Virus record (IMG/VR): IMGVR_UViG_3300028364_000013
Direction: 5' to 3' (one strand)
DNA: 64,000 nucleotides
From: a virus
Lineage: Duplodnaviria; Caudoviricetes
A program made the translations under genes and the position numbers. Position 1 is the first letter of the stretch, and every line of letters starts with the position of its first letter. Below the pieces are notes generated by a model that saw only the letters and a list, made by a program, of their open reading frames with translations, did not search any database and had not been told where the DNA came from. Positions 32,660-59,798 of the stretch are shown in pieces.

Positions 32660-32763
32660 AATTTAACCATAACTTAGTAAAGTGCCTCTACCGTTCTACT
32701 GTCGAAGTTTGTTCGGGTGTTTACTCGCCTTGATAAGGACTGTCGATTGTTATAATTAATTTC

Positions 32764-32789
32764 TTATACGCAAATGTAATACTTTTGTT
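32764..32789 (-). promoter_or_regulatory. ECF-type promoter of the Leu(AAG)-Gln tRNA unit
   Basis: TGAAAC-N16-CGTATAA with embedded TACATTTG. Confidence 0.8.
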
Positions 32790-32865
32790 TCAATTATTCA
32801 ACTCTTTTTTTAATTATTTTTGTCGTAAGCAATAGGGTTCAGAAATTTTTAATATATTTATTGAT

Positions 32866-33786
32866 ATGAACAAAGAATCTAAAACAGAAAAGTTTATTCA
32901 AAAAGCAATTTGTGCTCATGTAGATAGATATGACTATTCTCTATCTAAATATTCAAATTCTAAAATTAAAGTTATAATTATATGCTCAAAGCATGGTCAG
33001 TTTAGTGTAACTCCAGATAATCATATAAATAAAAAATCTGGGTGCCCTAAATGCAATGGTGGGGTTAGATTATCTATCAATGAATTCATTGAGCAATCTA
33101 ACAAATCTCACAATAGCAAGTATGATTATTCTTTAGTAGAATATAAAAATAACGCCACTAAAGTGACAATAATATGCCCAGAGCATGGAAAATTTAAACA
33201 GAGGCCTCAAGACCACATGAACAAACTTGGATGCTCTAAATGTGGCATTAAAAAAAGAGCTAATTCAAGAACTTCAAATGCAGAAGAATTTATTAAAAAA
33301 GCAATTTATACTCATGGAGACAAATATGATTATTCAAATGTTGAGTATAAAAAATCAAACTTAAATGTAACAATAATATGTAATCAACATGGTGAATTTC
33401 AACAAAAACCAAATGACCACCTTAGCAATAAAAATGGCTGTCCTATCTGTTGTGAATCTAAAGGAGAAATTGCAATAAGAAATTTCTTAACAGAAAATTC
33501 AATAAAATTTATACCTCAAAAAAGATTCAAAGATTGTAAAGACAAAAGAACACTTCCTTTTGATTTTTATTTGCCAAAATTAAATCTTTGCATAGAATAT
33601 GATGGCATTCAGCATTTTAATAAAAAAAACAGATACTATTCAGATGACAGAAAGAAAAAAGATGAAATCAAAAATCAATATTGCACAGGCATAAATGATA
33701 AACCTAAAATTTTAAGAATATCTTACCTTGAAATTGATGATATTAATCAAATTCTAACAAACTCTGTCAAACGACAAAAACAATAA
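32866..33786 (+). CDS. homing endonuclease with DUF723-like repeats and a Vsr/DUF559-like nuclease domain
   Basis: Three YDYS...ICxxHG.F repeats, SKGE, LPFDFYLP, CIEYDGIQH. Confidence 0.8.
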   Translation: MNKESKTEKFIQKAICAHVDRYDYSLSKYSNSKIKVIIICSKHGQFSVTPDNHINKKSGCPKCNGGVRLSINEFIEQSNKSHNSKYDYSLVEYKNNATKVTIICPEHGKFKQRPQDHMNKLGCSKCGIKKRANSRTSNAEEFIKKAIYTHGDKYDYSNVEYKKSNLNVTIICNQHGEFQQKPNDHLSNKNGCPICCESKGEIAIRNFLTENSIKFIPQKRFKDCKDKRTLPFDFYLPKLNLCIEYDGIQHFNKKNRYYSDDRKKKDEIKNQYCTGINDKPKILRISYLEIDDINQILTNSVKRQKQ

Positions 33787-33796
33787 ATCAAAGAAC

Positions 33797-34045
33797 TTAA
33801 AATAGATTTCTCAAAAAACTTTTTAGTGAGTTGAATCTATTCTTAATATATTTAAAAACGTTAATTTTAGCTACAAAGAAGTATGCTCCAAAAAACGAAG
33901 CTGACAATAGGTAGAAAATAGACATAGTAGTCCAATAATCTCCCGTCCATTTCATCACAACTGCCGTTGCAGCATCGAATCCTATTGGACAAAAGAACAT
34001 TCCCATCATTAGGAACATTATACCTATGTTCTTTCTGTTTCTCAT
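33797..34045 (-). CDS. small membrane protein
   Basis: Two hydrophobic segments. Confidence 0.55.
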   Translation of the reverse strand: MRNRKNIGIMFLMMGMFFCPIGFDAATAVVMKWTGDYWTTMSIFYLLSASFFGAYFFVAKINVFKYIKNRFNSLKSFLRNLF

Positions 34046-34124
34046 AATCCCCTATACTGTCTGATTCCATTTAATCAAGTTTTGTTAATAATTTTCCACC
34101 AAAAGTGGACTCTTCTATAAATAG

Positions 34125-34796
34125 TTTAAATTCCTTCAACAAGAATTTGATACAGCTAAAAGCGATGACAAACTACCTTGTCAATGCTCAGTTTGCAAAG
34201 AAACTTTTTATCTAACAAAACACCAAACACAAAGAGTATTAAATCCAAATCAACAAAAAAATGGAAATTTTTGTTCTAACAAATGTAGAGCAAAAAACAA
34301 CACTAAAAAAGAAACAATAAATTGCACAAACTGTGATGAAGAATTTGAAAAACAATATAGCCAAATTAAAAAATCAAAAAACCACTTTTGCTCTCTCTCT
34401 TGTAATGCAACCTACAACAACAAACACAAAACCCACGGCACTCGTAGGTCAAAACTTGAAGTTTGGCTGGAGGAGCAGTTAACCAAGCTTTATCCAAATA
34501 TCCAAATAGACTTCAACAAGAAAAATACTATAGAGTCTGAACTTGACATCTATATACCTTCATTAAACCTTGCTGTTGAGCTCAATGGAATCTTTCACTA
34601 TGAACCTATATACGGAGTTGATAAACTCCAGCAGATTCAAGAGAACGACATCTCCAAATCCAAGGCATGTCATGACTTAAAAATCGACTTATGCACCATC
34701 GACACAAGTGGTCAAAAATACTTCAAAGAATCTACTTCCAAAAAATATCTTGACATCATAAATAATATTATCAAAGAACGCATGTTAACCTCTTAG
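34125..34796 (+). pseudogene. start-less Zn-finger PD-(D/E)XK homing endonuclease (not in ORF track)
   Basis: 224-codon open frame after an in-frame TAG with no upstream ATG; CSVC, FCSNKC, CTNC, FCSLSC, ELDIYIP, VELNGIFHY. Confidence 0.75.
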
Positions 34797-34852
34797 CCAG
34801 CTTTACCTGTTTCCAACAACCGCTACGTGGAAGCGGGTTAACTTTGGTTGTC

Positions 34853-34943
34853 TACTCCTGGTCGGACTCGAACCGACAACGTTTACCTGCATGGGTATCA
34901 GATTTTAAGTCTGATGCGTTTCAACCAATTTCGCCACAGGAGC
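34853..34943 (-). tRNA. tRNA-Leu(UAA)
   Basis: TCAGA-CTTAAAA-TCTGA, long variable arm, A73. Confidence 0.9.
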
Positions 34944-34952
34944 ATTTGTTTG

Positions 34953-35033
34953 TACAGATAGCGAGAGTCGAACTCGCACGCCTCTCGGCCATAGCTTCTA
35001 AGGCTATTGTGTCTACCATTCCACCACATCTGC
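34953..35033 (-). tRNA. tRNA-Leu(UAG)
   Basis: ATAGC-CTTAGAA-GCTAT, long variable arm. Confidence 0.9.
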
Positions 35034-35046
35034 ATGGCGCTGTAGA

Positions 35047-35595
35047 TTAATCTACAGCTTTATATTTTCTAAAAGTCATACTCACTCTTGGGCCACAATC
35101 TCTATCGTGCTTAGGAATCCTGTGCAAATTTGTATCTTGGAATCCTGGAGGCATATAGAATAAAGAACCATTTTCTAACTTTCTCTTATTCTCTTCTGGA
35201 ACTACTCCTTTTTCTCCTTTTAACTTCCACCAAATTTCTCTTTCAGCCCCAAATGATACAACCGCTATCCCATCATTATGGTCAATTGAATGAGAGTCGT
35301 CAGCGTGCCATCCTAATCCATTTCTTGAGTTCATATATAAATTCAAGAAGCAAATATCCAAACTTGTTCCCAACTTTTTATTAACCTTTTCCATTATTTC
35401 CCTAATCGCAGGCAACATTGGTGTTGATTTATAAGTTGGAGCTCCACTGTGGTCTAAGTAAGAGTATTCAATGTCAGAATCTGCCATAAAACACTCTCTT
35501 CTCATCTTCGTCTCATCAATCCAACTAACATCCCTTACCAAGGTGTCAATAAAATCTTCATTGACCAAATCATTTATGTATACTAACTTTTTCAT
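35047..35595 (-). CDS. AlkB-like 2OG-Fe(II) dioxygenase
   Basis: NLY, GWHADD, HRIPK, RVSMTFR. Confidence 0.88.
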   Translation of the reverse strand: MKKLVYINDLVNEDFIDTLVRDVSWIDETKMRRECFMADSDIEYSYLDHSGAPTYKSTPMLPAIREIMEKVNKKLGTSLDICFLNLYMNSRNGLGWHADDSHSIDHNDGIAVVSFGAEREIWWKLKGEKGVVPEENKRKLENGSLFYMPPGFQDTNLHRIPKHDRDCGPRVSMTFRKYKAVD

Positions 35596-35609
35596 TTCAT
35601 TTTTATTTG

Positions 35610-35682
35610 TAACTCCACCCAGATTCGAACTGAGACTTTAACGTTCGTAGCGTTAGGTGCTAATCCATTACACCATGGAGCT
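35610..35682 (-). tRNA. tRNA-Arg(ACG)
   Basis: TAACG-CTACGAA-CGTTA. Confidence 0.9.
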
Positions 35683-35985
35683 ATGAATTTCAAAGTGACA
35701 ATTAGCACAAACCAACATACACTTATCTAATTCTTCTTTTATTTTTTTATCAAACTTATGCGACTTCATTTTACTTAAAGCAAAACCTTTTTCTTTTGGG
35801 TCAAGGTGATGAAACTGTAAAGCTCCAACATATTTATCATATCCACATTTTTCACAACAACCACCTTTGTATTCAACGCATTTAATTTTAAACTTTCTAC
35901 CACGTTCTCTACTCTCTTCTTTATATCCAAGAGCCTCTAAAATTATTGGAAGTGCTGATTCTGTGTAAAATATTCTCGGTTTCAT
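35668..35985 (-). CDS. HNH endonuclease
   Basis: YKGGCCEKCGY, LQFHHLDP, CMLVCANCHFEIH; probable start MKPRIF. Confidence 0.85.
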   Translation of the reverse strand: MKPRIFYTESALPIILEALGYKEESRERGRKFKIKCVEYKGGCCEKCGYDKYVGALQFHHLDPKEKGFALSKMKSHKFDKKIKEELDKCMLVCANCHFEIHSSMV

Positions 35986-36000
35986 ATTTAAAATTTTTTG

Positions 36001-36081
36001 TACAGATGACGAGAGTCGAACTCGCACGCCTTTCGGCACTGGTTTCTAAAACCAGCGTGTCTACCATTCCACCACATCTGC
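36001..36081 (-). tRNA. tRNA-Leu(UAG)
   Basis: CTGGT-TTTAGAA-ACCAG, variable arm TGCCGAAAGGCGT. Confidence 0.92.
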
Positions 36082-36141
36082 ATATTTTTGGATAGTTAGT
36101 CGGAATATTTCCGATTATCCTATCACAATTTTACATTTTTG

Positions 36142-36215
36142 TAGGAGTAGAGGAATTCGAATCCCCGACATCTGACATGTAAAATCAGCGCTCTAACCAA
36201 CTGAGCTATACTCCT
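36142..36215 (-). tRNA. tRNA-Val(UAC)
   Basis: CTGAT-TTTACAT-GTCAG. Confidence 0.9.
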
Positions 36216-36394
36216 ATTTTTTCTAAATTTATAAATTTCATCTTAGGTCAAACCAAGAAGGGCTCGAAATTTAATTTTTAATATATTTTTTAATAAAAAC
36301 TATTAAAAAATATCTTGACATCATAATCAATATTATCAAAGAACGAACATTAAATGCTAAAACCTAAATAATAATTATTTCAAAGAACTTATAG

Positions 36395-36468
36395 TGGAAT
36401 AGGGTGGATTCGAACCGCCAACGCTCACCGCTTCAAGATGACGCTCTACCAATTGGAGCTACTATTCC
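36395..36468 (-). tRNA. tRNA-Phe(GAA)
   Basis: TCATC-TTGAAGC-GGTGA. Confidence 0.88.
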
Positions 36469-39218: not shown

Positions 39219-40337
39219 CTAATGTACTACTTTAGCGATTGCAGGATTGTTCCTAATCCCGAAATTCATTATATTTTTACCTGCATTAACATCTCTATCT
39301 TCCGAATGTCCACACTTATCACAATTATATGTCCTATCTGAAAGTTTAAGGTCTTTCTTGATATTCCCACAAACATTGCACAATTTACTACTTGGTTCAA
39401 ATCTTCCGATTACAACAAGGTTTTTACCTTGCCATTCAGATTTATATTCAAGCATTGTTCTTAATTGCCCCCAACCCATATCAGATATAGCCTTTGCTAA
39501 ACAATGGTTTTTAACCATATTAGAAACTGCTAAATCCTCAATACAAATTGTTTCATAAGTATCCACTAATTCAGTAGATATTTTATGCAAATAGTCAGTC
39601 CTTTGGTTACGGATTTTCTCTTGCAATAATGCTACTTTTAATTTTTGTTTTTCTCTATTACTACTTCCTTTTACTTTTCTTGCTAAACTTCTTTGTTCAA
39701 CTCTCAGCCTTATTTGTTGTGATTTGAAAAAGTTTTTATTTTCATACACAACTCCATCAGAAGTGATAGCTAAATCTTTAATCCCAAAATCAATTCCTAC
39801 ACTTGTACTTGTTGTAATTATTTTCTTTTTAGGTATTTCTTTATCATTATCAACTAAAATAGATACAAAATATTTACCTGTTACAGTCTTAGTTAATGTT
39901 ACTCTTTTTGGTATTCCTTTAAATTCTCTATGATAATCAATAGCAACTTCTTTTAATTTAGGAAGTTTAATAACATTGTCCTTAAATGATATTTCAAAAC
40001 CTTGCGGAAATGTAATTGATTGTTTAGAATATCTATTTTTATATTTAGGAAATTGCCCCCTGCCTTTAAAAAAGTTTTGATATGCAGTATCTAAATTAAT
40101 TAAACTATGTTGCAAAATTTGGCTTGGGCATTCCTTTATGTAATCAAATTCTTTTTTTAATTCGGGTAATTGTTTAATTAAATCATACTTAGATATTGAT
40201 TTTTTGTTTGAAGCATACGCAGTAGTCTTAGTTTCTAACCCTAAGTTAAAAACCAATCTATTAACTCCAAAGTACCGTTGTAATTGGTCTTTTTGAGTTT
40301 CCGTTGGGAAAATTCTGTATTTATATCCTTTTAACAT
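39219..40337 (-). CDS. tnpB: TnpB RNA-guided nuclease
   Basis: YKYRIFPT HTH, VGIDFGI, ICIEDL, SSKLCNVCG, CDKCG, DRDVNAGKNI. Confidence 0.93.
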   Translation of the reverse strand: MLKGYKYRIFPTETQKDQLQRYFGVNRLVFNLGLETKTTAYASNKKSISKYDLIKQLPELKKEFDYIKECPSQILQHSLINLDTAYQNFFKGRGQFPKYKNRYSKQSITFPQGFEISFKDNVIKLPKLKEVAIDYHREFKGIPKRVTLTKTVTGKYFVSILVDNDKEIPKKKIITTSTSVGIDFGIKDLAITSDGVVYENKNFFKSQQIRLRVEQRSLARKVKGSSNREKQKLKVALLQEKIRNQRTDYLHKISTELVDTYETICIEDLAVSNMVKNHCLAKAISDMGWGQLRTMLEYKSEWQGKNLVVIGRFEPSSKLCNVCGNIKKDLKLSDRTYNCDKCGHSEDRDVNAGKNIMNFGIRNNPAIAKVVH

Positions 40338-41246: not shown

Positions 41247-42275
41247 TTATTTAATCAAAAATTCTTGGAGAACCTCACTCCCAAACTCTCCTTTGGTTAA
41301 ATTAATTATTTCTGTAACTGAATATTTTTCTTTCTTATTTATTTTATTTCTCTCAACAAAATCTTTAACACCAAAACTGCAAGCTCCAGTTATAGCTCGA
41401 TAACAAGAAACTGCTTGCTCAAAACTTAACTTATCTGTTAGCTTTAAGTTTTTAAAATCATCTTTGTTTACATCAGAATTTAACTTATAAATCAAATCTT
41501 CTCTTGCTTCTGAAAGAGAGTCTCCATGAGCATATCTGCCATTCCCATCTGTAACCAAATAAAAAACCTTCTCTTTAAATAGCTCTTTAACTCTGAAAAC
41601 ACCGCCTCTCACAGAAATAATCTCTGTAAATATACCATCTGCCTTTATGTATTTATCGCCCCACATAACTGGTCCAATTAATTTCGTGTAATCACAAGTC
41701 AAACCTCCCAAGTCCAAACCTCCTCCAACGGTTGGGTTAAATCCCTCTGGAATCGAAGTCAAGTTGTTCAAGTACAAACCTTCTCCAACAGTTGGGTTAA
41801 ATCCCTCTGGAATCGAAGTCAAGTTGTTCAAGTACAAACCTTCTCCAACAGTTGGGTTAAATCCATCTGGAATCGAGGTCAAACTGTTCAAGTCCAAACC
41901 TCCTCCAACGGTTGGGTTAAATCCCTCTGGAATCGAAGTCAAGTTGTTCAAGTACAAACCTTCTCCAACAGTTGGGTTAAATCCATCTGGAATCGAAGTC
42001 AAACTGTTCAAGTCCAAATATCCTCCAACGGTTGGGTTAAATCCCTGTGGAATCGAGGTCAAACCGCTCAAGTCCAAACCTCCTCCAACGGTTGGGTTAA
42101 ATCCCTCTGGAATCGAAGTCAAGTTGTTCAAGTACAAACCTTCTCCAACAGTTGGGTTAAATCCATCTGGAATCGAAGTCAACCCTCTCAAGTGCAAGCT
42201 TCCATTTATTTTAACTTCACCAGTAAACTGCTCTTCAGTTAAATTGTATTCCTTGCAAAATTCTTTTTTATTCAT
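41247..42275 (-). CDS. 20-aa LRR-like repeat protein, copy 1
   Basis: 8 tandem LTSIPEGFNPTVGxxLxLxx units; 342 aa. Confidence 0.85.
   Translation of the reverse strand: MNKKEFCKEYNLTEEQFTGEVKINGSLHLRGLTSIPDGFNPTVGEGLYLNNLTSIPEGFNPTVGGGLDLSGLTSIPQGFNPTVGGYLDLNSLTSIPDGFNPTVGEGLYLNNLTSIPEGFNPTVGGGLDLNSLTSIPDGFNPTVGEGLYLNNLTSIPEGFNPTVGEGLYLNNLTSIPEGFNPTVGGGLDLGGLTCDYTKLIGPVMWGDKYIKADGIFTEIISVRGGVFRVKELFKEKVFYLVTDGNGRYAHGDSLSEAREDLIYKLNSDVNKDDFKNLKLTDKLSFEQAVSCYRAITGACSFGVKDFVERNKINKKEKYSVTEIINLTKGEFGSEVLQEFLIK
41700..42195. repeat. 60-bp coding tandem repeat x8
   Basis: GTTGGGTTAAATCC recurs every 60 nt. Confidence 0.95.
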
Positions 42276-42283: not shown

Positions 42284-43831
42284 TTATTTTGTTTCTAATT
42301 TTATAAATGGTTTAATCTTTTCACACTGTTTTAGTGCGACTCTAATTTCTTCAAATTTTCCAGGAATTACTGGATAGTAGAGTTCATTTATTTTCGTAAT
42401 GGCATAGTGAATCTCTAGGACTAGCGGCCAACCTTTCTCAAGGTCTTTCCAAGGTTCTGCATCACCAATTCTCTTATTAAGTTCTTTTACAAGCTTGTTT
42501 GTCTCTTGAAGGGCGTCTGAAATTAGATAGTTGTTCCAAAGTGTTTTTATATTGTCAATTCTCTGGTCAAGTCCAACACACCATTTTTCTTCAGACACAT
42601 AAGAGTGGTCTAATTCAATATTTGGGTCATCCACGAACTTGTCGAGAGTCTTACTAGCCAATACGGTGACTCTGGTGACTAAATTACCATAATCATCAGC
42701 AAGGTCATTGTTGTATTTAGCTACAAGCAACTCTTCATCCCAAGATGAGTTTCCATAAGTTCTTAAACCCGCAAGCGCATAGTAACGAACTGCATCAACT
42801 CCATATTTTTTAACTTGGTCAATAGGGTCAACAACATTTCCAACAGACTTACTCATCTTACGTCCATCTTTATCCAAAATAGTTCCATGAACAAGTAATT
42901 TATCTGTTTTTTTGATTCCTGCAGACATTAATAGTCCCTGAAATATTACAGACTGGAATTTAAGGTTATCTGGGCCACAAATCTGAATTACTTCAGACTC
43001 ATTCCACCTTTCTTCAAAGTCATGGTCGTCATGAAGGTCATTAGGGTAGTATCCTGCAGCAAATATGTAGTTTAACAAAGCATCAAACCATACATATATG
43101 ATTTGGTCTTCATCTCCTGGAACTGGGATTCCCCAACTAACAGTTTCTTTAACTCTGGATATAGAAATGTCCTGAAGATTCTCTATAATCTTATCGAATT
43201 CTCCAATCTTATTCTTTGGTTCAAAAAATTTGTCATTTACATGCAGCCACTGAAGAAACCTTTCTCTATATTTAGAAAGTTTGAAGAAATAGTTTTCTTC
43301 TTCAACTTCTTGAAGCTCTGTTGTTGGGTGGTCTGGACAAACTTTTCTTTTGTGTATATGCACCTTAGGATATTCAAGAGCAGGGTCAACTCCTCCAATA
43401 ATTCTATCCTCAAGTTCTCTATCGCTTTTGAATGACTCGCATCCAACACAATAGGTTCCAGTGTATTTCTTTTTGTAGATGTCGCCTCTATTGAAGGCTT
43501 CAACCCAGAACTGCTGAACATTCACATAATGCTCTGAGTCAGATGTTCTGTAAAATGAATCCCAGCTATCAATCTTAAGTTCTTTAATGAAATCTTCCCA
43601 ACTGTAAAGAAGGTCATCAACATATGCTTGAGGAGAAATACCCTTAGCTTCAGCTGCTTGCTGAATCTTTAAGCCATGTTCATCAAGACCAATATTGAAA
43701 AATACATTATCACCACGATATTTGAAATATCTCACCAAAGCATCAGCTATGATAAATTCAAAAGCGTGTCCTATGTGCGGATTTGAGTTCGCATATGGCA
43801 ATGTGGTCGTTATGTATTTATTTTTATTCAT
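42284..43831 (-). CDS. metG: methionyl-tRNA synthetase
   Basis: YITTTLPY, HIGH, YCVGCE, YVWFDAL, KMSKS. Confidence 0.95.
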   Translation of the reverse strand: MNKNKYITTTLPYANSNPHIGHAFEFIIADALVRYFKYRGDNVFFNIGLDEHGLKIQQAAEAKGISPQAYVDDLLYSWEDFIKELKIDSWDSFYRTSDSEHYVNVQQFWVEAFNRGDIYKKKYTGTYCVGCESFKSDRELEDRIIGGVDPALEYPKVHIHKRKVCPDHPTTELQEVEEENYFFKLSKYRERFLQWLHVNDKFFEPKNKIGEFDKIIENLQDISISRVKETVSWGIPVPGDEDQIIYVWFDALLNYIFAAGYYPNDLHDDHDFEERWNESEVIQICGPDNLKFQSVIFQGLLMSAGIKKTDKLLVHGTILDKDGRKMSKSVGNVVDPIDQVKKYGVDAVRYYALAGLRTYGNSSWDEELLVAKYNNDLADDYGNLVTRVTVLASKTLDKFVDDPNIELDHSYVSEEKWCVGLDQRIDNIKTLWNNYLISDALQETNKLVKELNKRIGDAEPWKDLEKGWPLVLEIHYAITKINELYYPVIPGKFEEIRVALKQCEKIKPFIKLETK

Positions 43832-45663: not shown

Positions 45664-46077
45664 CTAATTCCTCTTCTTATTTTTATTATTTCTATATGTA
45701 ATGTGGTCTACAAAACCTTTTTCAGTATGATAACCCCACTCTTTTTCTTTTCTCTTTCCGACAATTGCCAACGTGATTACTTTCTTTGACACAACCTGTC
45801 TGATGCAGTGGAATCTATCCGAATTTCGGTATCCCATGTTTAAAAACGTTCTAACCTTATGAGTTTTATCCTTCCCGTTCTTCATCAAGAGCTCCTCTAC
45901 ATAAGAGCCCCACAATATCATCGTCCAAATACTCCAAGGATGATTGTGAAGATGGTCATCCTGGTCTTCCTTGTAAATACCATGGATGTACACACAAAAC
46001 CATAGAGTCTTTAACAACTGCCATCTCCTGAAGTGCAATTCTCCAGATTTGCTTATTATTTCTTTTACTAAATTCAT
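45664..46077 (-). CDS. cupin-fold protein
   Basis: HLHNHPW...GSYVEE...FHCI. Confidence 0.6.
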   Translation of the reverse strand: MNLVKEIISKSGELHFRRWQLLKTLWFCVYIHGIYKEDQDDHLHNHPWSIWTMILWGSYVEELLMKNGKDKTHKVRTFLNMGYRNSDRFHCIRQVVSKKVITLAIVGKRKEKEWGYHTEKGFVDHITYRNNKNKKRN

Positions 46078-46093
46078 AATTCAAATATTAAAA

Positions 46094-46334
46094 ATAAATA
46101 AAGGCTCATAACCAGGTTCCTGTCGTGGGTTATCATTTGTCTATTGTCCTCTACCCGTACCTCACTGGAGCAGCTCACCCTCCTAAGTACTGTTTGAGTT
46201 TCATCTCGGCAGGAATTACACTTATGGTGGTACAATAACGCTTTTCAGCTCCCACACCGCCTAAACTGTGATGGCCTGAGTTTGTCCTCTCATCCCAACA
46301 AGTGGGGTAGAGCGATAACCTCGCCTTTATTTAT
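46094..46334 (-). ncRNA. rnpB: RNase P RNA-like ribozyme, reduced (about 240 nt)
   Basis: P1 ATAAATAAAGGC/GCCTTTATTTAT, P2 GGTTATC/GATAACC, P4 AAC-U-CAGG/CCTGGTT with bulged U, CR-like GAGGACAAA, GGGTAG, AGACAAATGAT, ACAGGAACC. Confidence 0.75.
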
Positions 46335-47133
46335 ATTCTTTCAACACTGGATACATTGCAAAAGCTTCTGCATCTGTTGTTGGCATCTTGTGGTAACGAA
46401 TGTAAATCTTTTTCTTATAATTCTCTTCATAAGCTTCATGACCCTCTTCATCCTCTTTAACATATCTCAAATTAGGGTCGTAATCTGGAGCAGTAAACTC
46501 AAGACTATACTCACACCCTCTATACTTGTATTTTTTCCAACCAAGTTCTTCAAGCAAATTTAAGAAAAATTCTTGATTAAGAAAATTCTCTTTTGATTTC
46601 ATCGCTTCTTCATGCTTTTTTTTGCTCCAGTGTCCACCTTCTGTACTCCAAATGTGTCCACCATTATGTTTGATGTCGCTGTTGAAGTCTTCTTTAATTT
46701 CATATAAATACCAAGCAACTGGAACTGATTCATGCGAAAGTGTTTTGAATATAGCGAAGTTTCCAAGTTCGTCTACCCAATGTAATTTCTTCATGTGAGA
46801 AGTGGTGTATCCAGAATAAAATTCACAAAACATGTCAACAAGGTCTTGGTTGTAATCGTTTACATCCAAACCTCTCTTCATGTCATCAAGCATATCTTGC
46901 AGATATGATATTTCTCCTTTTTTAAATTTTATTTCATCTCTAACTTCCTCTTTATAGTCAACAACAATCTCTGTCTGCTTTCTCTCAGCAAGAGTAAGCT
47001 CCTGGCGAAGTCTTTTGACCTCATCAGTAGCATCCTGATATTCAGGCAAGAATTTATAACCATCAAGAATCTCTTTCAAGTCTTCTCTCTCCTTGGCTAT
47101 CATTCTTTTTATTTCTGCTTGAGTATGTGACAT
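46327..47133 (-). CDS. hypothetical coiled-coil protein
   Basis: Probable start MSHTQ (or TTG at 47151); stop overlaps the 5' end of the RNase P-like RNA. Confidence 0.65.
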   Translation of the reverse strand: MSHTQAEIKRMIAKEREDLKEILDGYKFLPEYQDATDEVKRLRQELTLAERKQTEIVVDYKEEVRDEIKFKKGEISYLQDMLDDMKRGLDVNDYNQDLVDMFCEFYSGYTTSHMKKLHWVDELGNFAIFKTLSHESVPVAWYLYEIKEDFNSDIKHNGGHIWSTEGGHWSKKKHEEAMKSKENFLNQEFFLNLLEELGWKKYKYRGCEYSLEFTAPDYDPNLRYVKEDEEGHEAYEENYKKKIYIRYHKMPTTDAEAFAMYPVLKEYK

Positions 47134-47769: not shown

Positions 47770-48441
47770 CTATAAATATTGGTCATACCAATAATTTTCT
47801 GCAACATCAATCGCTTTTTGTATGTCAAAGCCATTTCTAATAAACTTACTTGCTCTTGTCAATAGTTCTTTATATTGTTCGTCTTTATTTAGATAATAAG
47901 CAGTATTAAATATTTCAATGGTTTTAATTTCTTCTTGACTTGCTTCCTGAAACCATTCTTGTTTTTCTTCTTCTGAACCAAAATCATCTTCACTAAATAA
48001 GATGTCAAACTTAAAATATGGACTATCTGGTGAAAGCGTCTTTTTCTTGATGTCAGCTCTATCATAAAACTGTTTCCAAACACCCCACGCTTCGCCTCTA
48101 ACATCTCCATCTCTTGACGGCATAAGTCCTTTACCATTTCTTCCAGCATGCATCATTGCAAGTTCATATATAAATGGCCCAAACCCTTTTTCTGCAGCAA
48201 CACCAGTTACAAAATAATCTGGACCAAACTCATTTCTATAAACCACTGTTATTGTTCCATAAATCTTTTTATTAGTTGGGTCATAAATAACAAGGTCATA
48301 ACCTTGGTTTATATCTCTTACAAATAGCGCTGCTGTTTCTGGAAGGTCTTTTGTTCTTAGTGCGCTCTCTTTAAAAAAAACTTCATCAACAACTTCTCTT
48401 ATTATTTTTATAATATACATATTGTCATTTAATTTTCTCAA
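47770..48441 (-). CDS. putative virion-packaged protein, GNAT-like
   Basis: IIREVVDE N-terminal motif; VAAEKGFGPFIYELAM resembles GNAT motif A. Confidence 0.5.
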   Translation of the reverse strand: MRKLNDNMYIIKIIREVVDEVFFKESALRTKDLPETAALFVRDINQGYDLVIYDPTNKKIYGTITVVYRNEFGPDYFVTGVAAEKGFGPFIYELAMMHAGRNGKGLMPSRDGDVRGEAWGVWKQFYDRADIKKKTLSPDSPYFKFDILFSEDDFGSEEEKQEWFQEASQEEIKTIEIFNTAYYLNKDEQYKELLTRASKFIRNGFDIQKAIDVAENYWYDQYL

Positions 48442-49012
48442 TAAATTCTATAGCTCCTGGATTAAATACTATAATATGCTTATCTCCAGACACTCCAGAT
48501 GGAGCATCTACAATTATTCCATCATAACCAAGCTTAACCATATTTCTAACATAATCAACAGAATTATATCTGTAAAAATCTGCCTCTATTTGTTGAAAGG
48601 CTTCAGCTTCATCGTTATTATATTTAATTGCCATGTTAGCTGCTTCGTAAGCGCCAGTTTCTGGGTCTTCAGAATAATCTTGAGCATCCATCTCCCATTC
48701 ATCCTTCATTTTAATAAGCCTAACAAGCTCTTCTGGGTCAACACTGTCAATTGGAGCGTTTCTATCAAGAAACTTTCCCTTTATAAGAACTTTGTAAATG
48801 TGGTCACCATAATAAGAAGCATCTTCAGCGTTAGTTGCAAAATATATCCCAGCACCTTGTGCGTCATTAGCTTTTTCTCCTCCAACAAAGTCATCTGTAA
48901 ATCTTTCAATCTCATTTGGACTACCATGATATGCTTCAAACGAATCTTCTATTATTTCATTAATAAATGATTCTTTTAAAACTTCTCTTATTATGTTTCT
49001 TACCTCTTTCAT
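48425..49012 (-). CDS. putative ADP-ribosyltransferase-fold protein
   Basis: Start MKEVRNIIREVLKE; AYHGS...QGAGIYFAT...GYDGII. Confidence 0.65.
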   Translation of the reverse strand: MKEVRNIIREVLKESFINEIIEDSFEAYHGSPNEIERFTDDFVGGEKANDAQGAGIYFATNAEDASYYGDHIYKVLIKGKFLDRNAPIDSVDPEELVRLIKMKDEWEMDAQDYSEDPETGAYEAANMAIKYNNDEAEAFQQIEADFYRYNSVDYVRNMVKLGYDGIIVDAPSGVSGDKHIIVFNPGAIEFIEKIK

Positions 49013-49842
49013 TAAACTTTTTGATAACGTCCTTTGAATTTTGGAATGTCTTCTTTTGCTAAGTTCAAGCACACATATTCTTCACCAGCTTTAATGGCTC
49101 CCATAATTCTATGGTGACCATCTCTCAATTGAACTACGAACTTATTGAAGTCTCCTTCTTCATTTACTTTGGCTGATTTTAATGCTATTTCTAAATTTAT
49201 AAACTCGCCAAATGCTTCAACTTCATCTTCATCTGGACCAATGGCCATAAATCCTTCTTTAAGTTGTTCTGGAGTATATCTTTCACCAATAACATCAAAT
49301 TTATGATTTTCAAAAAACTCTAAAGCTTCTGGTCCAACGCTATATGCAAAATCCATGTCTTCAATATTTTTCCCCGCATATTGGTCAAGCTCTTCGCTTC
49401 CAGTTGATGCTGCCTCTATCTTTCCATCATAATCACTATCAAACCTATCTTCGGCTACAGCGTTCTGCTCTTCCTTGATGTCTATAATATCTATGATTCC
49501 ACCAATTCCATAAGAACACTCAAGTTCTATTTTCTCTGGATAATCTGAAATAAGTTTTACAATGTATCTCATTTTGGCTGGGTCATATATATTTCCAAAC
49601 ATACCCTCAATCTGGTCTTTATGGATTACAATCATTTGGTCTGGGTCTCCATACCAAACAACGTTACGGCCTTCATATTTGTGGCTCCACCCTTTTATTT
49701 CATTTGAAATTGTTGGAGTAAAATATTGTTCACCCTCATCTTCCATATAGTGCTCATCATCACCATATTCTTCCTCATCTTCGTAATACTCTTTAAGAAT
49801 TACTTCACGAATAATCTTCCTTATTTCTAATATAATATCCAT
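49012..49842 (-). CDS. acidic protein with C-terminal ParB/Srx-like motif
   Basis: IRKIIREVILKE; LRDGHHRIMGA. Confidence 0.55.
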   Translation of the reverse strand: MDIILEIRKIIREVILKEYYEDEEEYGDDEHYMEDEGEQYFTPTISNEIKGWSHKYEGRNVVWYGDPDQMIVIHKDQIEGMFGNIYDPAKMRYIVKLISDYPEKIELECSYGIGGIIDIIDIKEEQNAVAEDRFDSDYDGKIEAASTGSEELDQYAGKNIEDMDFAYSVGPEALEFFENHKFDVIGERYTPEQLKEGFMAIGPDEDEVEAFGEFINLEIALKSAKVNEEGDFNKFVVQLRDGHHRIMGAIKAGEEYVCLNLAKEDIPKFKGRYQKV

Positions 49843-51791: not shown

Positions 51792-53219
51792 TTAGTATTT
51801 CCTTTTTGAAGGGTCGTCATCAGCCATCCTAACCACTTGTGGTGTGAATGTACCAAGAATATCAATCAAGTTGTTTTGCGCTTCCATTACTTTCGTAATA
51901 TCTTTATAAGCATATGGAGCCTCATCGAGACCGCCACCAACAAGTGTTACCTTGTTATCTTTAAGAAGCTTAGTAACTGAGCTTTGAGTAAACGAGTTTC
52001 TCGCCACCTTTCTTGACATAGCTCTACCAGCACCGTGAGAAGCTGAAGATATTGAGTCAACAACACCTCTTCCTCTAACAATGAACCCTGGAGAAACCAT
52101 AGAACCTGGGATTATACCAAGGACACCTTTTCCAGCAGGAGTTGCTCCCTTACGGTGAACAATAACCTCTTTACCATCAATGATTTCCTTCCAAGCAAAG
52201 TTGTGGTGATTTTCAATCTTAGCCACTGGGTTTAACTTTAGCTCTTTGGTAATTCTTCTGTGAATCTCGTTGTGACAAGCTTGCGCATAATCACCAGCCA
52301 TATTCATAGCTATCCAGTATTCCACACCAGCTTCCGAATTCATATCAAGCCACGCAAGGTGTTGAGCTGCCTTTGGAAGAGGTGTTGTGTTCATAGCAAT
52401 TTCATGATACTTGTTGGCAAGTGTAGCACCGAACCCTCTTGAACCAGAGTGAGTTAATACACCAACATATTCTCCAACCTCAAGACCGAAGTCGTTAGTT
52501 GGGTCAGTTATCTTAACTATACCAAAGTCCACAAAGTGATTTCCACCTCCTGAAGTTCCAAGTTGTTTCCAAGCTTTGTCCTTAAGAGCTTTTATGTTTG
52601 GTATTTCATTGAACTCTTTCCTATCAAGGAATTCGTGTTCAGTTAATTTACCATCATTCTCAACTCCCATTCCGAAGAATGACTCAGACTTAAGAATGTT
52701 TTCAATCTTATCTCTATTTCCATCAATGTATGAACCACCTTTATCGTAGATGGTCATGTGCATTCTACAACCTATGTCAACACCAACTGCATATGGAATA
52801 ATAGCATTATCTGTAGCAAGGACACCTCCAATTGGAAGTCCATAACCTTGGTGAGCATCTGGCATAAGAGCTGCAGCAACAGAGATTGGCAATCTTGCAG
52901 CAAGTTTTATTTGCTCGTGAGCGCCTTCTTCTATGTTGTCTCCACCATATACAGTATATGGCACACCAACTTCTTTAAGTGGGATTTCAATCACTTCCTC
53001 TTCTACAGCTGGAATCAATAATTCAGCGATTGGCCCAAGAACAATGTCTTCAACATAATCTTCTGGAGTCAAAAGTACAGCCTTTAAAATATCACGTACA
53101 GTATCAAGGTCACTGTGCTTGTAAGCTTTTGTTACAATCTTCAATGTTACACCCATAACTTTACCTGGCTCCATTCCGAACGCCATAAGGTCTTTGCCTG
53201 TTATCTTTAACTTTACCAT
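51792..53219 (-). CDS. rtcB: RtcB RNA ligase
   Basis: MPDAHQGYG, GVDIGC, GTSGGGNHF, HSGSRG, HHN, VHRKGA, SHGAGR, DEAPYAYK. Confidence 0.95.
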   Translation of the reverse strand: MVKLKITGKDLMAFGMEPGKVMGVTLKIVTKAYKHSDLDTVRDILKAVLLTPEDYVEDIVLGPIAELLIPAVEEEVIEIPLKEVGVPYTVYGGDNIEEGAHEQIKLAARLPISVAAALMPDAHQGYGLPIGGVLATDNAIIPYAVGVDIGCRMHMTIYDKGGSYIDGNRDKIENILKSESFFGMGVENDGKLTEHEFLDRKEFNEIPNIKALKDKAWKQLGTSGGGNHFVDFGIVKITDPTNDFGLEVGEYVGVLTHSGSRGFGATLANKYHEIAMNTTPLPKAAQHLAWLDMNSEAGVEYWIAMNMAGDYAQACHNEIHRRITKELKLNPVAKIENHHNFAWKEIIDGKEVIVHRKGATPAGKGVLGIIPGSMVSPGFIVRGRGVVDSISSASHGAGRAMSRKVARNSFTQSSVTKLLKDNKVTLVGGGLDEAPYAYKDITKVMEAQNNLIDILGTFTPQVVRMADDDPSKRKY

Positions 53220-54233: not shown

Positions 54234-55262
54234 TTATTTAATCAAAAATTCTTGAAGAGCTTTACTTCCGAACTCTCCTTTGGTTAAATTAATTATTTCT
54301 TTAACTGAATATTTTTCTTTCTTATTTATTTTCTCTCTCTCAACAAAGCCTTTAACACCAAAACCGCAGGCTCCAGTTATAGCTCGATAACAAGAAATTG
54401 CTTGCTCAAAACTTAACTCATCTGTTAGTTTTAAGCCTTTAAAATCATCTTTATTTACATCAGAATTTAACTTGTAAATTAAATCCTCTCTGGCTTCAGA
54501 AAGAGAGTCTCCATGAGCATATTTGCCACCCCCATTTGTAACCAAATAAAAAACCTTCTCTTCACATAACTTCTTAACTCTGAAAACACCGCCTCTCACA
54601 GAAATAATCTCTGTAAATATACCATCTGCCTTTATATATTTATCGCCCCACATAACTGGCCCAACCAATTTCGTGAAATCACAAGTCAAACCTCCCAAGT
54701 GCAAACTTCCTCCAACGGTTGGGTTAAATCCCTCTGGAATCGAAGTCAAACTGTTCAAGTCCAAAGTTCCTCCAACGGTTGGGTTAAATCCCTGTGGAAT
54801 CGAGGTCAAACCGCTCAAGTCCAAATATCCTCCAACGGTTGGGTTAAATCCCTCTGGAATCGAAGTCAACCTGTTCAAGTACAAACCTTCTCCAACAGTT
54901 GGGTTAAATCCCTCTGGAATCGAAGTCAACCTGTTCAAGTACAAACCTTCTCCAACAGTTGGGTTAAATCCCTCTGGAATCGAAGTCAACCTGTTCAAGT
55001 ACAAATATCCTCCAACGGTTGGGTTAAATCCCTCTGGAATCGAGGTCAACCTGTTCAAGTACAAACTTCCTCCAACGGTTGGGTTAAATCCCTCTGGAAT
55101 CGAAGTCAAGCTGTCCAAGTACAAACTTCCTCCAACGGTTGGGTTAAATCCCTCTGGAATCGAAGTCAAGCTGTCCAAGTCCAAAGTTCCATTTATTTTA
55201 ACTTCACCAGTAAACTGCTCTTCAGTTAAATTGTATTCCTTGCAAAATTCTTTTTTATTCAT
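54234..55262 (-). CDS. 20-aa LRR-like repeat protein, copy 2
   Basis: 342 aa, 8 repeats, termini nearly identical to copy 1. Confidence 0.85.
   Translation of the reverse strand: MNKKEFCKEYNLTEEQFTGEVKINGTLDLDSLTSIPEGFNPTVGGSLYLDSLTSIPEGFNPTVGGSLYLNRLTSIPEGFNPTVGGYLYLNRLTSIPEGFNPTVGEGLYLNRLTSIPEGFNPTVGEGLYLNRLTSIPEGFNPTVGGYLDLSGLTSIPQGFNPTVGGTLDLNSLTSIPEGFNPTVGGSLHLGGLTCDFTKLVGPVMWGDKYIKADGIFTEIISVRGGVFRVKKLCEEKVFYLVTNGGGKYAHGDSLSEAREDLIYKLNSDVNKDDFKGLKLTDELSFEQAISCYRAITGACGFGVKGFVEREKINKKEKYSVKEIINLTKGEFGSKALQEFLIK
54690..55190. repeat. 60-bp coding tandem repeat x8
   Basis: GGGTTAAATCCCT recurs every 60 nt. Confidence 0.95.
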
Positions 55263-56468: not shown

Positions 56469-56523
56469 ATTAATAAATATGATAAAAAAAGCAAAAACAA
56501 GATTTCGAGCCAGTATGATTTTG

Positions 56524-56595
56524 AGACAGCGAAGGGATTCAAACCCTTATAACCACACTTTGCAGGTGCGTACCTTATCAATCGGCCACGCTGTC
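56524..56595 (-). tRNA. tRNA-Cys(GCA)
   Basis: CGCAC-CTGCAAA-GTGTG, U73; D loop TGAT and T loop TTTGAAT. Confidence 0.85.
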
Positions 56596-56608
56596 TTATA
56601 TTTTATTG

Positions 56609-56693
56609 AGGTCAGGGAGGGATTCAAACCCCCGATGGGCTTGCGCCTACAGATTTGCAGTCTGTCGTCTTCAATCACTCGAACCACCCGACC
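56609..56693 (-). tRNA. tRNA-Cys(GCA) with long variable arm
   Basis: ACAGA-CTGCAAA-TCTGT, variable arm GGC-GCAA-GCC, U73. Confidence 0.82.
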
Positions 56694-56712
56694 TTATAAA
56701 GGGGAAAGTCAA

Positions 56713-57384
56713 TTAAGACCTTCCACCTTTACAGATTATATCAGCTGCACAAGTTGCAGCCCAAGAGTTAGGCTTAAACCTTACTCTGTATCCTAATCCC
56801 TCAAGATGCGCTTTTGCAGCAGCATAAACAATGTGGGACCTGTTCTTTGGAATACCTGGAGACTTACCTGCTCTGATAAGTTCTTTTTGCCAAGAAGTCC
56901 AACCAGCATCTGGGTTAATGTCAATATCAATATCAACTAACTTGGTTTGGTTTGACTTGTAACCTTTAGCAACAGCTTCTTCTGGTGTCATCCTCTTGTA
57001 CTTCCCTTCAAGCTCTCTCTCAAAGTATTCTCCAAGTTCGAAAAGCCTTTCGGTTTCATGCCAGATTCTTTGGAAAATAGATGAAGTCAAATTCTTTCTG
57101 TGAAGCTCTTTGTCTTTAACTTTGTTTCCAGTCTTGCTGAATTTAACTTGGTTACCAGAAATAAGCTCTCTATTGAAAATGTAGTGTACACCGTCATTTC
57201 TGTCGTTATCGTAAAACGCTACAACATCTGCATACATAATTTTTCTACCATTTCTTCTTACATCAGAGTCGCATCCAATGTAAACAGTTTCTCCTGGAAA
57301 TTTCTCAATGTGTCCTCTAACGTACTCACCAAGGTCAGCAATTATTTCACCTCCAAATTTCTTAAATACTCTTTCTTCCATCAT
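56713..57384 (-). CDS. RNase H-like protein (DUF458-like)
   Basis: VYIGCDS, IWHET, IDIDIN, KPNSWAATCAAD. Confidence 0.75.
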   Translation of the reverse strand: MMEERVFKKFGGEIIADLGEYVRGHIEKFPGETVYIGCDSDVRRNGRKIMYADVVAFYDNDRNDGVHYIFNRELISGNQVKFSKTGNKVKDKELHRKNLTSSIFQRIWHETERLFELGEYFERELEGKYKRMTPEEAVAKGYKSNQTKLVDIDIDINPDAGWTSWQKELIRAGKSPGIPKNRSHIVYAAAKAHLEGLGYRVRFKPNSWAATCAADIICKGGRS

Positions 57385-57475
57385 TTCTTCTTTTTTTAGT
57401 AGTCCTAAAAAGTTGTCAGTTTTTTCCAGTCTAATTCATCATTATTACTTGTTTTTTGTTTTTAAATTTGCGCAT

Positions 57476-57512
57476 AAAAAAAAGCCCAAACTATTCGAGA
57501 TAGCTTGAGCTT
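57476..57512 (-). terminator. attenuator terminator of the Cys leader
   Basis: AAGCTCAAGCTAT-CTCGA-ATAGTTTGGGCTT, 8-U tract. Confidence 0.85.
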
Positions 57513-57536
57513 AAAATTTCTTTTATTATTATAAAT

Positions 57537-57647
57537 CTACTTCATAACACTCAAACTAACGTTTTTTTTGCAAAACGGACATACCCCTTCCAGGCCGCAA
57601 TCAATCGCTTGCGAAGTTGGTCTCCAATATGTCATGTTAGTTTTCAT
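57537..57647 (-). CDS. Cys-containing leader peptide MKTNMTYWRPTSQAIDCGLEGVCPFCKKNVSLSVMK
   Basis: 36 codons, 3 Cys; terminator 24 nt downstream, then an RNase H-like gene and two tRNA-Cys. Confidence 0.7.
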   Translation of the reverse strand: MKTNMTYWRPTSQAIDCGLEGVCPFCKKNVSLSVMK

Positions 57648-57669
57648 CTGTTTATAAATATATTATTTT

Positions 57670-57945
57670 TTATCCAAGCAGCAATCCGCTCTTTTTTTCT
57701 TGTTTTTTTGCATCTTTCCATTTCCATCCGAGGAAGAATCTGGTACACGCTCTATGAAACCAATTTGGCTTCTTTGTATAGTTGAAGACGATTGAACCTT
57801 CTACTTGGTTGCTTCCTGTTATATCATATCCTCCAACAACTGGTGGTGGAGTGTATATTTTAACATCTGCAACATCAATTGCTTCATCAATTTCTGGCTT
57901 TTTTCTTTCACCAGAATATTCTTGTTCTTCCCAATATATATTCAT
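57670..57945 (-). CDS. hypothetical protein
   Basis: KKPNWFHR...FFLGWKW. Confidence 0.6.
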   Translation of the reverse strand: MNIYWEEQEYSGERKKPEIDEAIDVADVKIYTPPPVVGGYDITGSNQVEGSIVFNYTKKPNWFHRACTRFFLGWKWKDAKKQEKKSGLLLG

Positions 57946-58022
57946 ATTGTAAATATATAAAAATAATATTTAATATCAAATTAATAACCTTTTATTTACG
58001 CAGGGACTTATATTATTAATTG

Positions 58023-58096
58023 TGGGCCCCATCAGACTCGAACTGATAACCTTTTCATTATGAGTGAAATACACTAACCAATTGTGTTAGAGGCCC
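58023..58096 (-). tRNA. tRNA-Ile2(CAU) (or elongator Met)
   Basis: TTTCA-CTCATAA-TGAAA; C4-G69 and C5-G68 (TilS determinants) favour Ile2. Confidence 0.8.
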
Positions 58097-58105
58097 TTAA
58101 ATTTT

Positions 58106-58184
58106 GTCGGGAAGGTGAGATTCGAACTCACATGTAACCAATTACCCTTTCTACAAGATATAAGCTTGAGGGGATACAACCCGA
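58106..58184 (-). ncRNA. rearranged tRNA-like RNA with a UAU anticodon-like loop
   Basis: TCGGG/CCCGA acceptor, canonical T arm, hairpin CAAG-CTTATAT-CTTG, no normal D arm. Confidence 0.65.
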
Positions 58185-58225
58185 TACATATGTCTATTTC
58201 ACTTTCCATTTTATTTATTTTTTTG

Positions 58226-58323
58226 TGGACAATACGAGAATCGAACTCGTATCTCCAGTTTGCGCTATCCTGTGTGGTTGCACTTCATAGCCTTCACCGA
58301 TTTACCAATTAATCTAATTGCCC
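58226..58323 (-). ncRNA. tRNA-Ala-like RNA with an extended anticodon region
   Basis: G3:U70, A73, normal D and T arms, 47 nt instead of about 22 between them. Confidence 0.75.
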
Positions 58324-58328
58324 TTTTG

Positions 58329-58398
58329 TTGGTGTAGAGGGACTCAAACCCCCGACCCCCTGAATTACAGGTGCTCTAATCAACTGAGCTATACACCG
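58329..58398 (-). ncRNA. tRNA-like RNA with a shortened anticodon arm
   Basis: CCTG-TAATT-CAGG (4 bp, 5-nt loop), C1:A72, TGAT/TTTGAG elbow. Confidence 0.7.
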
Positions 58399-58442
58399 AA
58401 CTCTTCAATCGCCTTAAGTCGATTTCCGAGCTACTTAAGTAG

Positions 58443-58525
58443 TAGTGACGGTGGGAATTGAACCCACTTTGTACTTACGTACCCACGTTATCAGCGTGGT
58501 GCCTAAACCATCCAGCCCCGTCACT
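58443..58525 (-). tRNA. tRNA-Ile(GAU) with long variable arm
   Basis: CCACG-CTGATAA-CGTGG, variable arm GTAC-GTAA-GTAC, A73. Confidence 0.82.
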
Positions 58526-58536
58526 ATAAAAACTCT

Positions 58537-58773
58537 TTAGAAGAGTCTTTCTATTTCAATCCAAGTATAGGAATAAACTCCATTTTGAACTGGTATTCTT
58601 TTGCTAATATCCGCTCTTAACACTTTGAACATTGGATACTCTACCAAAAATCTTTCAAGCGCCTCGCTTGGCGTTATCATGTCTCCATCAAAATCAACAA
58701 GCCCGCCAACTACTTCCCACTTGTGTGATTGCCTCCATGTAGTGCAAATACTAAATAAAATATACTCTTCCAT
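58537..58773 (-). CDS. hypothetical protein
   Basis: 78-aa ORF inside the tRNA array. Confidence 0.5.
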   Translation of the reverse strand: MEEYILFSICTTWRQSHKWEVVGGLVDFDGDMITPSEALERFLVEYPMFKVLRADISKRIPVQNGVYSYTWIEIERLF

Positions 58774-58780
58774 TGCTCTA

Positions 58781-59551: not shown

Positions 59552-59637
59552 AATATTTGTTTTTTATTATAAATATTATGAAAAAAGTAAAAGTTCGATT
59601 TTTTGTTAAATTAATTCGAACTTTTACTTTAAATTAG

Positions 59638-59710
59638 TCTCCCCGATAGGACTTGAACCTATTCTCTTTCGATTAAAAGTCGAAGGCTTCCCCTGTTAAG
59701 CTACGAGGAG
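59638..59710 (-). tRNA. tRNA-Lys(UUU)
   Basis: TTCGA-CTTTTAA-TCGAA. Confidence 0.88.
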
Positions 59711-59726
59711 GTTTTTAATTCTTTCG

Positions 59727-59798
59727 TGAACCCACCGAGAGTCGAACTCGGTTCCATAGATTAAGAGTCTATAGCATCACCACTAATGCTTTGGGTCC
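59727..59798 (-). tRNA. tRNA-Lys(CUU)
   Basis: ATAGA-CTCTTAA-TCTAT. Confidence 0.88.

Follow-up and report, generated by a model that had tools for sequence, protein, structure and literature searches.

RNase P RNA is textbook cellular machinery, and among its bacterial representatives the E. coli M1 RNA and the Thermotoga maritima P RNA are of type A, the hallmarks of which are the P6 pseudoknot and the L15 GGU loop; in type A enzymes the latter motif binds the 3'-CCA of the tRNA. The typical length of a bacterial RNase P RNA is 340-420 nt (PMC4919922). Reduced cellular versions have been described from Mycoplasma fermentans and the Candidate Phyla Radiation (CPR), both of which have lost peripheral helices, with the CPR forms being devoid of P12-P14 and P18 and many of them also of the GGU motif; P18 is likewise absent in some cellular bacteria (PMC8172020). 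According to the passages of PMC4919922 and PMC8172020 that present Lai et al. 2010, the type T (P) RNA of Pyrobaculum/Thermoproteaceae is mostly catalytic domain with almost no specificity domain. Extra RPR copies combining aberrant specificity domains with conserved catalytic residues are found in Mycobacterium austroafricanum and M. sp. YC-RL4 (Behra et al. 2022, PMC9569102), and their horizontal acquisition is suspected (PMC9569102). The RNase P-like RNA of camelpox virus and other orthopoxviruses is eukaryotic-like and is reported not to process pre-tRNA in vitro (PMC3001073). In the searchable literature we found no virus-encoded RNase P-like RNA other than this one, and a full-text literature search, with most subscription journals outside its scope, did not turn up any report of an RNase P RNA encoded by a phage.

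The RNA described here shares with the type A bacterial RNAs the helices P1-P5, the P15-P16-P17 arm with its GGU motif, the P6 and P4 pseudoknots, the bulged U and the joining regions CR-I, CR-IV and CR-V. It differs from them in being without P8, P9, P13, P14 and P18, in having no alignable CR-II/CR-III, in a J3/4 region longer by 2 nt, in two flipped pairs of P4 and in being encoded by a phage. Type T RNAs join an archaeal core to archaeal proteins, whereas the core of the phage RNA is of the bacterial type A and includes P6 and the L15 GGU, and the RNA also keeps a conserved 54-nt remnant of the specificity domain with a P12-like hairpin; the resemblance between the two is one of outcome and not of descent. 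The reduced cellular P RNAs are each the sole chromosomal copy of their cell, whereas the phage family travels with tRNA arrays, and unlike those forms it has kept the GGU, P16/P17 and P6 while additionally losing P8 and P9. The mycobacterial extra RPRs, compared here by their description, reside on bacterial chromosomes, with neither a link to phages nor a description as a family being reported. The camelpox RNA, in contrast to the phage RNA, belongs to a virus of eukaryotes and is without a tRNA-gene context. From the analyses presented below, we favor, with a probability of roughly 70%, the reading that the locus is a real gene for a miniature, type A-derived RNase P RNA of a jumbo phage, which would cleave the leaders of phage pre-tRNAs together with the host RnpA protein.

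The window, by which we mean the whole stretch of 64,000 nucleotides that was analysed, is part of the IMG/VR virus record IMGVR_UViG_3300028364_000013, which is 195,333 bp in length and estimated to be 78% complete; the sequencing runs containing its DNA are lake-water metagenomes (DNA runs only). The original prediction had placed a compact phage-encoded RNase P RNA in the window and had its boundaries exactly right. The features of the locus are as follows:

46094-46334, minus strand: compact RNase P RNA gene, 241 nt, running exactly from P1 to P1, with an end-to-end match to RF00010
46327-47133, minus strand: upstream ORF, 268 aa, no Pfam family, with its stop codon within P1
45664-46077, minus strand: downstream ORF, 137 aa, HNHPW motif, no Pfam family, beginning 16 nt past the RNA
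31944-36468, minus strand: first tRNA array, on the same strand as the RNA, likely substrates
56523-61721, minus strand: second tRNA array, on the same strand as the RNA, likely substrates
3095-4348: RlaP nucleotidyltransferase
12231-14171: Pnkp-like phosphatase/ligase
16393-17703: Hen1 methyltransferase
39219-40337: TnpB/OrfB_IS605-type gene with a Cas12f-like TNB domain, within the phage tRNA region
42284-43831: MetRS
51792-53219: RtcB ligase

The region is an island of a jumbo phage given over to supplying tRNAs and repairing RNA. Its 25 tRNA genes all lie on the minus strand; a scan of the window at Rfam gathering thresholds shows 23 tRNAs. The Pnkp-like, Hen1, RtcB, RlaP and MetRS proteins make up a toolkit for RNA repair and translation, which suggests defence against tRNA-cleaving nucleases of the host. 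The RNA gene is wedged between the upstream and downstream ORFs, and a promoter/terminator scan detected no promoter directly upstream of it; we count both of these points against the favored reading.

A permissive cmscan of positions 45900-46500 recovered RF00010 (RNaseP_bact_a) on the minus strand at 46093-46331, spanning model positions 1-367, with 52.2 bits and an E-value of 3.5e-15, as the best and sole significant Rfam match of the RNA; in the clan competition it was this bacterial model that was retained as best match and not an archaeal-type core. The Infernal/Rfam check called for by the original prediction thus returned the expected model, but at a score about half of the curated gathering threshold of 100 bits, and this shortfall, too, has to be counted against the favored reading. 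As the score lies below this cut-off, the RNA is missed by standard annotation: a scan of the window at gathering thresholds reported tRNAs only and no RNase P RNA. An RF00010 search of the whole record also missed the RNA that the regional cmscan detects, which we take as a sensitivity limit of this first look. A covariance model of our own (R1, see below) scores the window RNA, its top match, at 321 bits and finds it as a single copy in the 195-kb record. The cmscan alignment covers CR-I, P5, the P15-P17 arm with CGGGUAG, J18/2 (AUAGACAAAUG) and CR-V (ACAGGAACCUGGUUA). The minimum-free-energy fold recovers P1 and P2 but does not surpass that of shuffled sequence (z = -0.28); this counts against the favored reading, though the measure is uninformative for an RNA with pseudoknots. 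When written out from 5' to 3', the structure comprises the following elements:

46323-46334, minus strand: P1 5' strand AUAAAUAAAGGC, forming 12 perfect pairs with 46094-46105 and including the TAA of the upstream ORF
46314-46320, minus strand: P2 5' strand GGUUAUC, 7 bp with 46128-46134
46289-46312, minus strand: P3 hairpin
46283-46288, minus strand: J3/4 (CR-I), AGGA plus a subtype-specific 2-nt CA insertion, placed by the cmscan alignment and column counts
46275-46282, minus strand: P4 5' strand AAC(U)CAGG with the bulged U, pairing with 46110-46116
46270-46273, minus strand: P5 5' strand CAUC, pairing with GAUG at 46202-46205
46264-46268, minus strand: 5' strand of the P6 pseudoknot, CAGUU, pairing with AGCUG in the P17 loop
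46208-46261, minus strand: 54-nt remnant of the specificity domain, filling the interval from P5/P6 to the 3' strand of P5
46202-46205, minus strand: P5 3' strand GAUG
46196-46198, minus strand: P15 5' strand CUC
46157-46190, minus strand: P16/P17 hairpin, two helices in the pair count
46171-46175, minus strand: 3' strand of the P6 pseudoknot, AGCUG, within the loop GGUGAGCUG
46152-46157, minus strand: J16/15, CGGGUA (the L15 GGU motif), invariant in the subfamily
46149-46151, minus strand: P15 3' strand GAG
46134-46147, minus strand: J18/2 (CR-IV) ACAAUAGACAAAUG, P18 being absent
46128-46134, minus strand: P2 3' strand GAUAACC
46117-46127, minus strand: J2/4 (CR-V) CACGACAGGAA, placed by the cmscan alignment and column counts
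46110-46116, minus strand: P4 3' strand CCUGGUU, outside the search pattern described below, yet paired in 99.7% of cells
46094-46105, minus strand: P1 3' strand GCCUUUAUUUAU, followed by a U-rich tail

The 12-bp P1, the 7-bp P2 and the P3 hairpin proposed in the original prediction are all present in this structure, along with a P6 pseudoknot that it had not named, and at 241 nt the RNA is indeed far shorter than the bacterial RNAs it was compared with. P4 had been called off-consensus on both strands while still pairing, and this holds: relative to the Rfam consensus AAGUCCGG/CCGGCUU, two pairs are swapped in AAC(U)CAGG/CCUGGUU and the bulged U is kept. With respect to the features that define type A, P4 with its bulged U lies between CR-I and CR-V, with 99.7% of the cells pairing in 51 sequences, and both P6 and the P15-P16-P17 arm, including its internal GGU loop, are in place, with compensatory changes in P15, P16, P17 and P6. 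The full specificity domain P7-P14 with CR-II/CR-III is absent, as is the P18 hairpin, in place of which there are 3 nt as against 25 model positions; altogether the covariance-model alignment omits these 25 positions and about 140 positions of the specificity domain, for which it has about 57 unaligned nt instead. The statement of the original prediction that no CR-II/CR-III could be found is in keeping with this omission, though a conserved 54-nt remnant persists. The RNA is homologous to bacterial RNase P RNA and has a complete catalytic-domain fold, with the helices P1-P5 and P15-P17 and two pseudoknots, P4 and P6. It has kept the joining regions CR-I, CR-IV and CR-V, the L15 GGU and the bulged U of P4, and has lost P8, P9, P13, P14 and P18. 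The 2-nt insertion in J3/4, a 1-nt insertion in J2/4 and the loss of the eighth P4 pair could each affect catalysis, which weighs against the favored reading.

To what extent the RNA is maintained by selection can be judged from its close relatives. A contig linked through its MetRS (68% aa identity), and hence reached without any RNA pattern, contains a homolog of the RNA scoring 50.5 bits with RF00010, and a degenerate pattern of the core motifs gathered another seven distinct sequences of this subtype from metagenomes. In these eight distinct close relatives the RNA lies between orthologs of the same two ORFs, with the stop codon of the upstream one inside P1; upstream-ORF orthologs of 71-72% aa identity adjoin the RNA in three of the contigs (L059, L084 and L067), and downstream-ORF orthologs follow it in all relatives with sufficient flank. 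Exact and near-exact patterns of the RNA retrieved only the one sister contig from IMG/VR, locus searches that used either flanking ORF as the single protein found nothing, and blastn/megablast of the RNA and the surrounding 12 kb gave no match among 50,697 GenBank phage records. Identity among the close relatives is 83-95% for the RNA and 37-79% aa for the flanking proteins. In an alignment of nine sequences 98.4% of the cells are paired, versus 37-45% when the partners are slid, and 18 pairs have changed on both sides; 0/500 shuffles do as well. Compensatory changes occur in P1, P3, P5, P15, P16, P17, the specificity-domain remnant and P6, and insertions and deletions are restricted to the tips of hairpins. 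In P1 there are double changes at three pairs; in P5 a U-A pair becomes C-G in 3 relatives; in P15 CUC/GAG is replaced by CGC/GCG in 4/9; and in P6 four of the five pairs show double changes with 100% of the cells pairing. The P3 hairpin is kept despite its sequence being replaced in five contigs (L003, L025, L061, L067 and L073), while P2, which is invariant within the subfamily, covaries in 6/7 of its pairs across the wider family. These patterns show strong purifying selection on the RNA. They also bear on the suggestion that it is a functionless, decaying remnant of a captured host rnpB, or host contamination, for which the sub-threshold Rfam score and the large deletions could be cited. 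The occurrence of the RNA at the same position between phage genes in eight distinct contigs from different samples, its conservation far beyond that of the neighboring genes, and the compensatory changes through every helix with indels only at hairpin tips effectively refute this suggestion.

The degenerate pattern retrieved 10 stretches from IMG/VR, 74 from JGI metagenomes and 21 from GTDB species genomes. The model R1, built from the nine-sequence subfamily, was used to define the compact family, and it matched end to end 66 viral/metagenome loci, which reduce to 53 distinct sequences (median 258 nt), as well as 13 loci in genome assemblies (the GTDB set). The contigs L010 and L011 and about 12 metagenome pattern matches had no R1 match and represent chance or coding sequence. 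Members of the family, the definition of which fits the window RNA, are about 245-305 nt in length from end to end, lack P18, and combine a core of type A with a mini specificity domain that has the motif UUA(A)GG...GGGAG-hairpin-...CCACC. In the alignment of 53 sequences 94.7% of the cells are paired, as opposed to 34-45% when slid, and both sides have changed in 56/65 pairs. The third pair of P4 is G-C in 25, C-G in 23 and U-A in 3 sequences, and the fifth is A-U in 35, G-C in 11 and C-G in 4. As the 3' strand of P4 covaries though it lay outside the pattern, the seemingly unusual P4 of the window RNA is one of several interchangeable variants, three of which occur in the 53-sequence family. 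Since the pattern had fixed GAGGA, AA.UC.GG (including the bulged U), AGA..AAUG and ACAG, the invariance of these positions among the members collected with it is by construction. Two members are independent of the pattern, namely the MetRS-linked contig and L136, a complete 374-kb phage in which a whole-record search gave an R1 match of 114 bits; the P4 of L136, AAU(U)CGCG/CGCGAUU, adds a fourth variant and keeps the bulged U, and its specificity-domain remnant is nearly identical. Outside the pattern, the AAA run of J5/15, the L15 GGU and the A after P4 are conserved, with the G, G and U of the GGU being present in 40/41, 36/41 and 37/42 of the non-gap cells of the wide family. Loci of distant downstream-ORF homologs had no RNase P RNA within 2.5 kb, except for the known sister contig, and three further members of the family gave no blastn match among the 50,697 GenBank phage records.

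Many members of the family are located within, or directly adjoin, dense tRNA arrays on the same strand. In the isolate Achromobacter anxifer LMG 26857 a compact copy of 224 nt (82.7 bits) at L101:6076-6299 is situated 12 nt past one tRNA and 15 nt ahead of the next, and the array around it is:

L101:1460-7859, contig NZ_CAHLAR010000005.1: A. anxifer tRNA array, 32 tRNA genes within 8 kb

A normal RNase P RNA of 405 nt (202 bits) is encoded elsewhere in this genome. Seven further family matches come from Gemmataceae/Planctomycetia MAG contigs, several of them adjoining tRNA arrays. This is a widespread phage-borne family for which we found no description in the literature. We think it reasonably probable, if with more reserve than for the window RNA itself, that these RNAs of 240-300 nt constitute an undescribed phage-borne structural class of minimal active ribozymes, with a conserved module of about 55 nt taking the place of the whole P7-P14 specificity domain, and that they spread with tRNA arrays between phages and bacteria.

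A few RNase P RNAs of comparable size are, or may be, outside the family. In Pseudomonas sp. NPDC096917 the RNA at L107:1169-1417 (187 bits) is a canonical type A RNase P RNA but for the clean loss of some 100 nt spanning P10-P14; it is the sole RF00010 match in that assembly, is either an assembly artefact or a natural deletion of the specificity domain, and does not belong to the phage family. Two metagenome RNase P RNAs of about 257 nt (L014:2234-2492 and L044:7028-7283) have a P2/P4 3' end (ACUGUCCACGACAGAACCCGGCUUAUCG) that looks enterobacterial by comparison with the M1 RNA sequence, and may be deletion variants like the L107 RNA and not members of the phage family.

The absence of the canonical specificity domain, which reads the T-loop, weighs against the favored reading. 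The remnant in its place contains a helix of 5 bp with a bulge (GGC-GG/CC-U-GCC), a second helix of 4 bp (GUGG/CCAC) and, in the position of P12, a GNRA-capped P12-like hairpin at 46240-46249; a 2-bp tetraloop hairpin covaries from CA-UAAG-UG to CG-UAAA-CG. Its support from the alignment consists solely of three short helices and this 2-bp hairpin. T-loop pentamers (U...A) sought by eye in the remnant had no consistently conserved position. The segment GUGGGAG...GUACCACC is invariant across the 9 relatives and the independently found L136, placing the remnant among the most conserved parts of the RNA, which argues that it is still used and is not dispensable. Furthermore, the motif UUA(A)GG...GGGAG-hairpin-...CCACC...GAG recurs in both GC-rich and AT-rich members, which argues for a functional remnant and suggests that the compact RNA family had a single origin.

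The presence of a conserved new module in place of the specificity domain raises the possibility that the RNA is a specialised RNase P, which through its altered domain acts on non-standard substrates such as over-long tRNA-like genes, the spacers of the arrays or phage mRNAs. This comes near to a proposal of the original prediction, that a catalytic-domain-dominated enzyme would serve phage tRNAs devoid of the elbow contact. The tRNA genes offer little to sustain the latter: 22/25 in the window have a G18G19 D-loop and a TTCRA T-loop, and the other three (56524, 56609 and 58329) have U56 to match A19, so that the elbow pair is compensated and not missing. The phage tRNAs are hence not elbow-less, and the elbow proposal is left unsupported. 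As regards specialised substrates more generally, the window does contain several tRNA-like genes of 83-98 nt besides the three A19/U56 tRNAs; but given the ordinary elbows of the 22 and the fact that the same RNA architecture adjoins ordinary tRNA arrays in many other contigs, we regard such a specialisation as unlikely. The over-long genes (58226-58323, 60931-61015, 32167-32252, 56608-56693 and 58442-58525) are assigned to Gln, Cys or Ile or are seen by Rfam only, and 60931-61015 is without a recognisable T-loop; possible explanations for their length are introns, long variable arms or functions other than that of a tRNA. The tRNA genes are followed by CAA in 15/25 cases, by CTA in 4 and by CCA in one (32170-32252). 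That 24/25 of them do not encode the CCA, though the RNA keeps the CCA-binding GGU, is a further point against the favored reading.

The mode of action that we propose on this reading is the following. The RNA would be cut out of a long minus-strand transcript, fold, and most likely borrow the host RnpA protein; this borrowing is proposed because no phage copy of the protein was found, rnpA (PF00825) not being detected in six viral records that carry an RNA of the family, the window's own among them, all of which are incomplete. The missing rnpA is also to be counted against the favored reading. The resulting enzyme would then remove the 5' leaders of the phage's own pre-tRNAs, numbering at least 25, with the 54-nt remnant probably standing in for the normal specificity domain in positioning the tRNA. 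The phage would thereby possess a tRNA-maturation capacity of its own beside its MetRS, RtcB, Pnkp/Hen1 and nucleotidyltransferase genes. It is conceivable that the RNA acts instead as a decoy or regulator, whose RnpA-binding core soaks up the host RnpA or competes for pre-tRNA and so re-routes or stops the tRNA maturation of the host. The loss of the specificity domain and P18, the insertions in J3/4 and J2/4 and the lack of a detectable rnpA in the six incomplete viral records would all be compatible with such a role, for which the camelpox virus RNA, reported as inactive in vitro (PMC3001073), provides a precedent. However, elements that serve substrate binding and chemistry rather than the binding of protein have been conserved (the bulged U of P4, the adenines of J5/15 and the L15 GGU), members of the family lie in tRNA operons, a setting that suits a processing enzyme, and a phage with 25 tRNAs needs more RNase P activity rather than less; a decoy function accordingly appears improbable to us. 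We hence retain the reading of a pre-tRNA-processing ribozyme, by which the phage-borne RNA, a genuine and selected miniature RNase P RNA and a novel structural form of this known ribozyme, is presumably catalytic.

If active, the RNA would add a ribozyme to the translation-related genes known from large phages, and would represent a natural 'mini-P', about 100 nt below the typical bacterial enzymes, in which tRNA recognition without a canonical specificity domain could be studied. If the reading is true, it would also explain how 5' maturation is accomplished in phages with dozens of tRNA genes. The family as a whole falls under the Rfam threshold and is thereby invisible to routine annotation; the copy in A. 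anxifer LMG 26857, being that of a cultured strain, opens it to bench testing.

Two further observations concern the neighborhood of the RNA. A match to the ART-PolyVal ADP-ribosyltransferase domain lies in the ORF at 48425-49072, and related contigs have paralogs and orthologs of this ORF near the RNase P RNA. A paralogous pair of 342-aa proteins, encoded at 41247-42275 and 54234-55262, is built with repeats of about 20 residues of the form LTSIP-GFNPTVGG.
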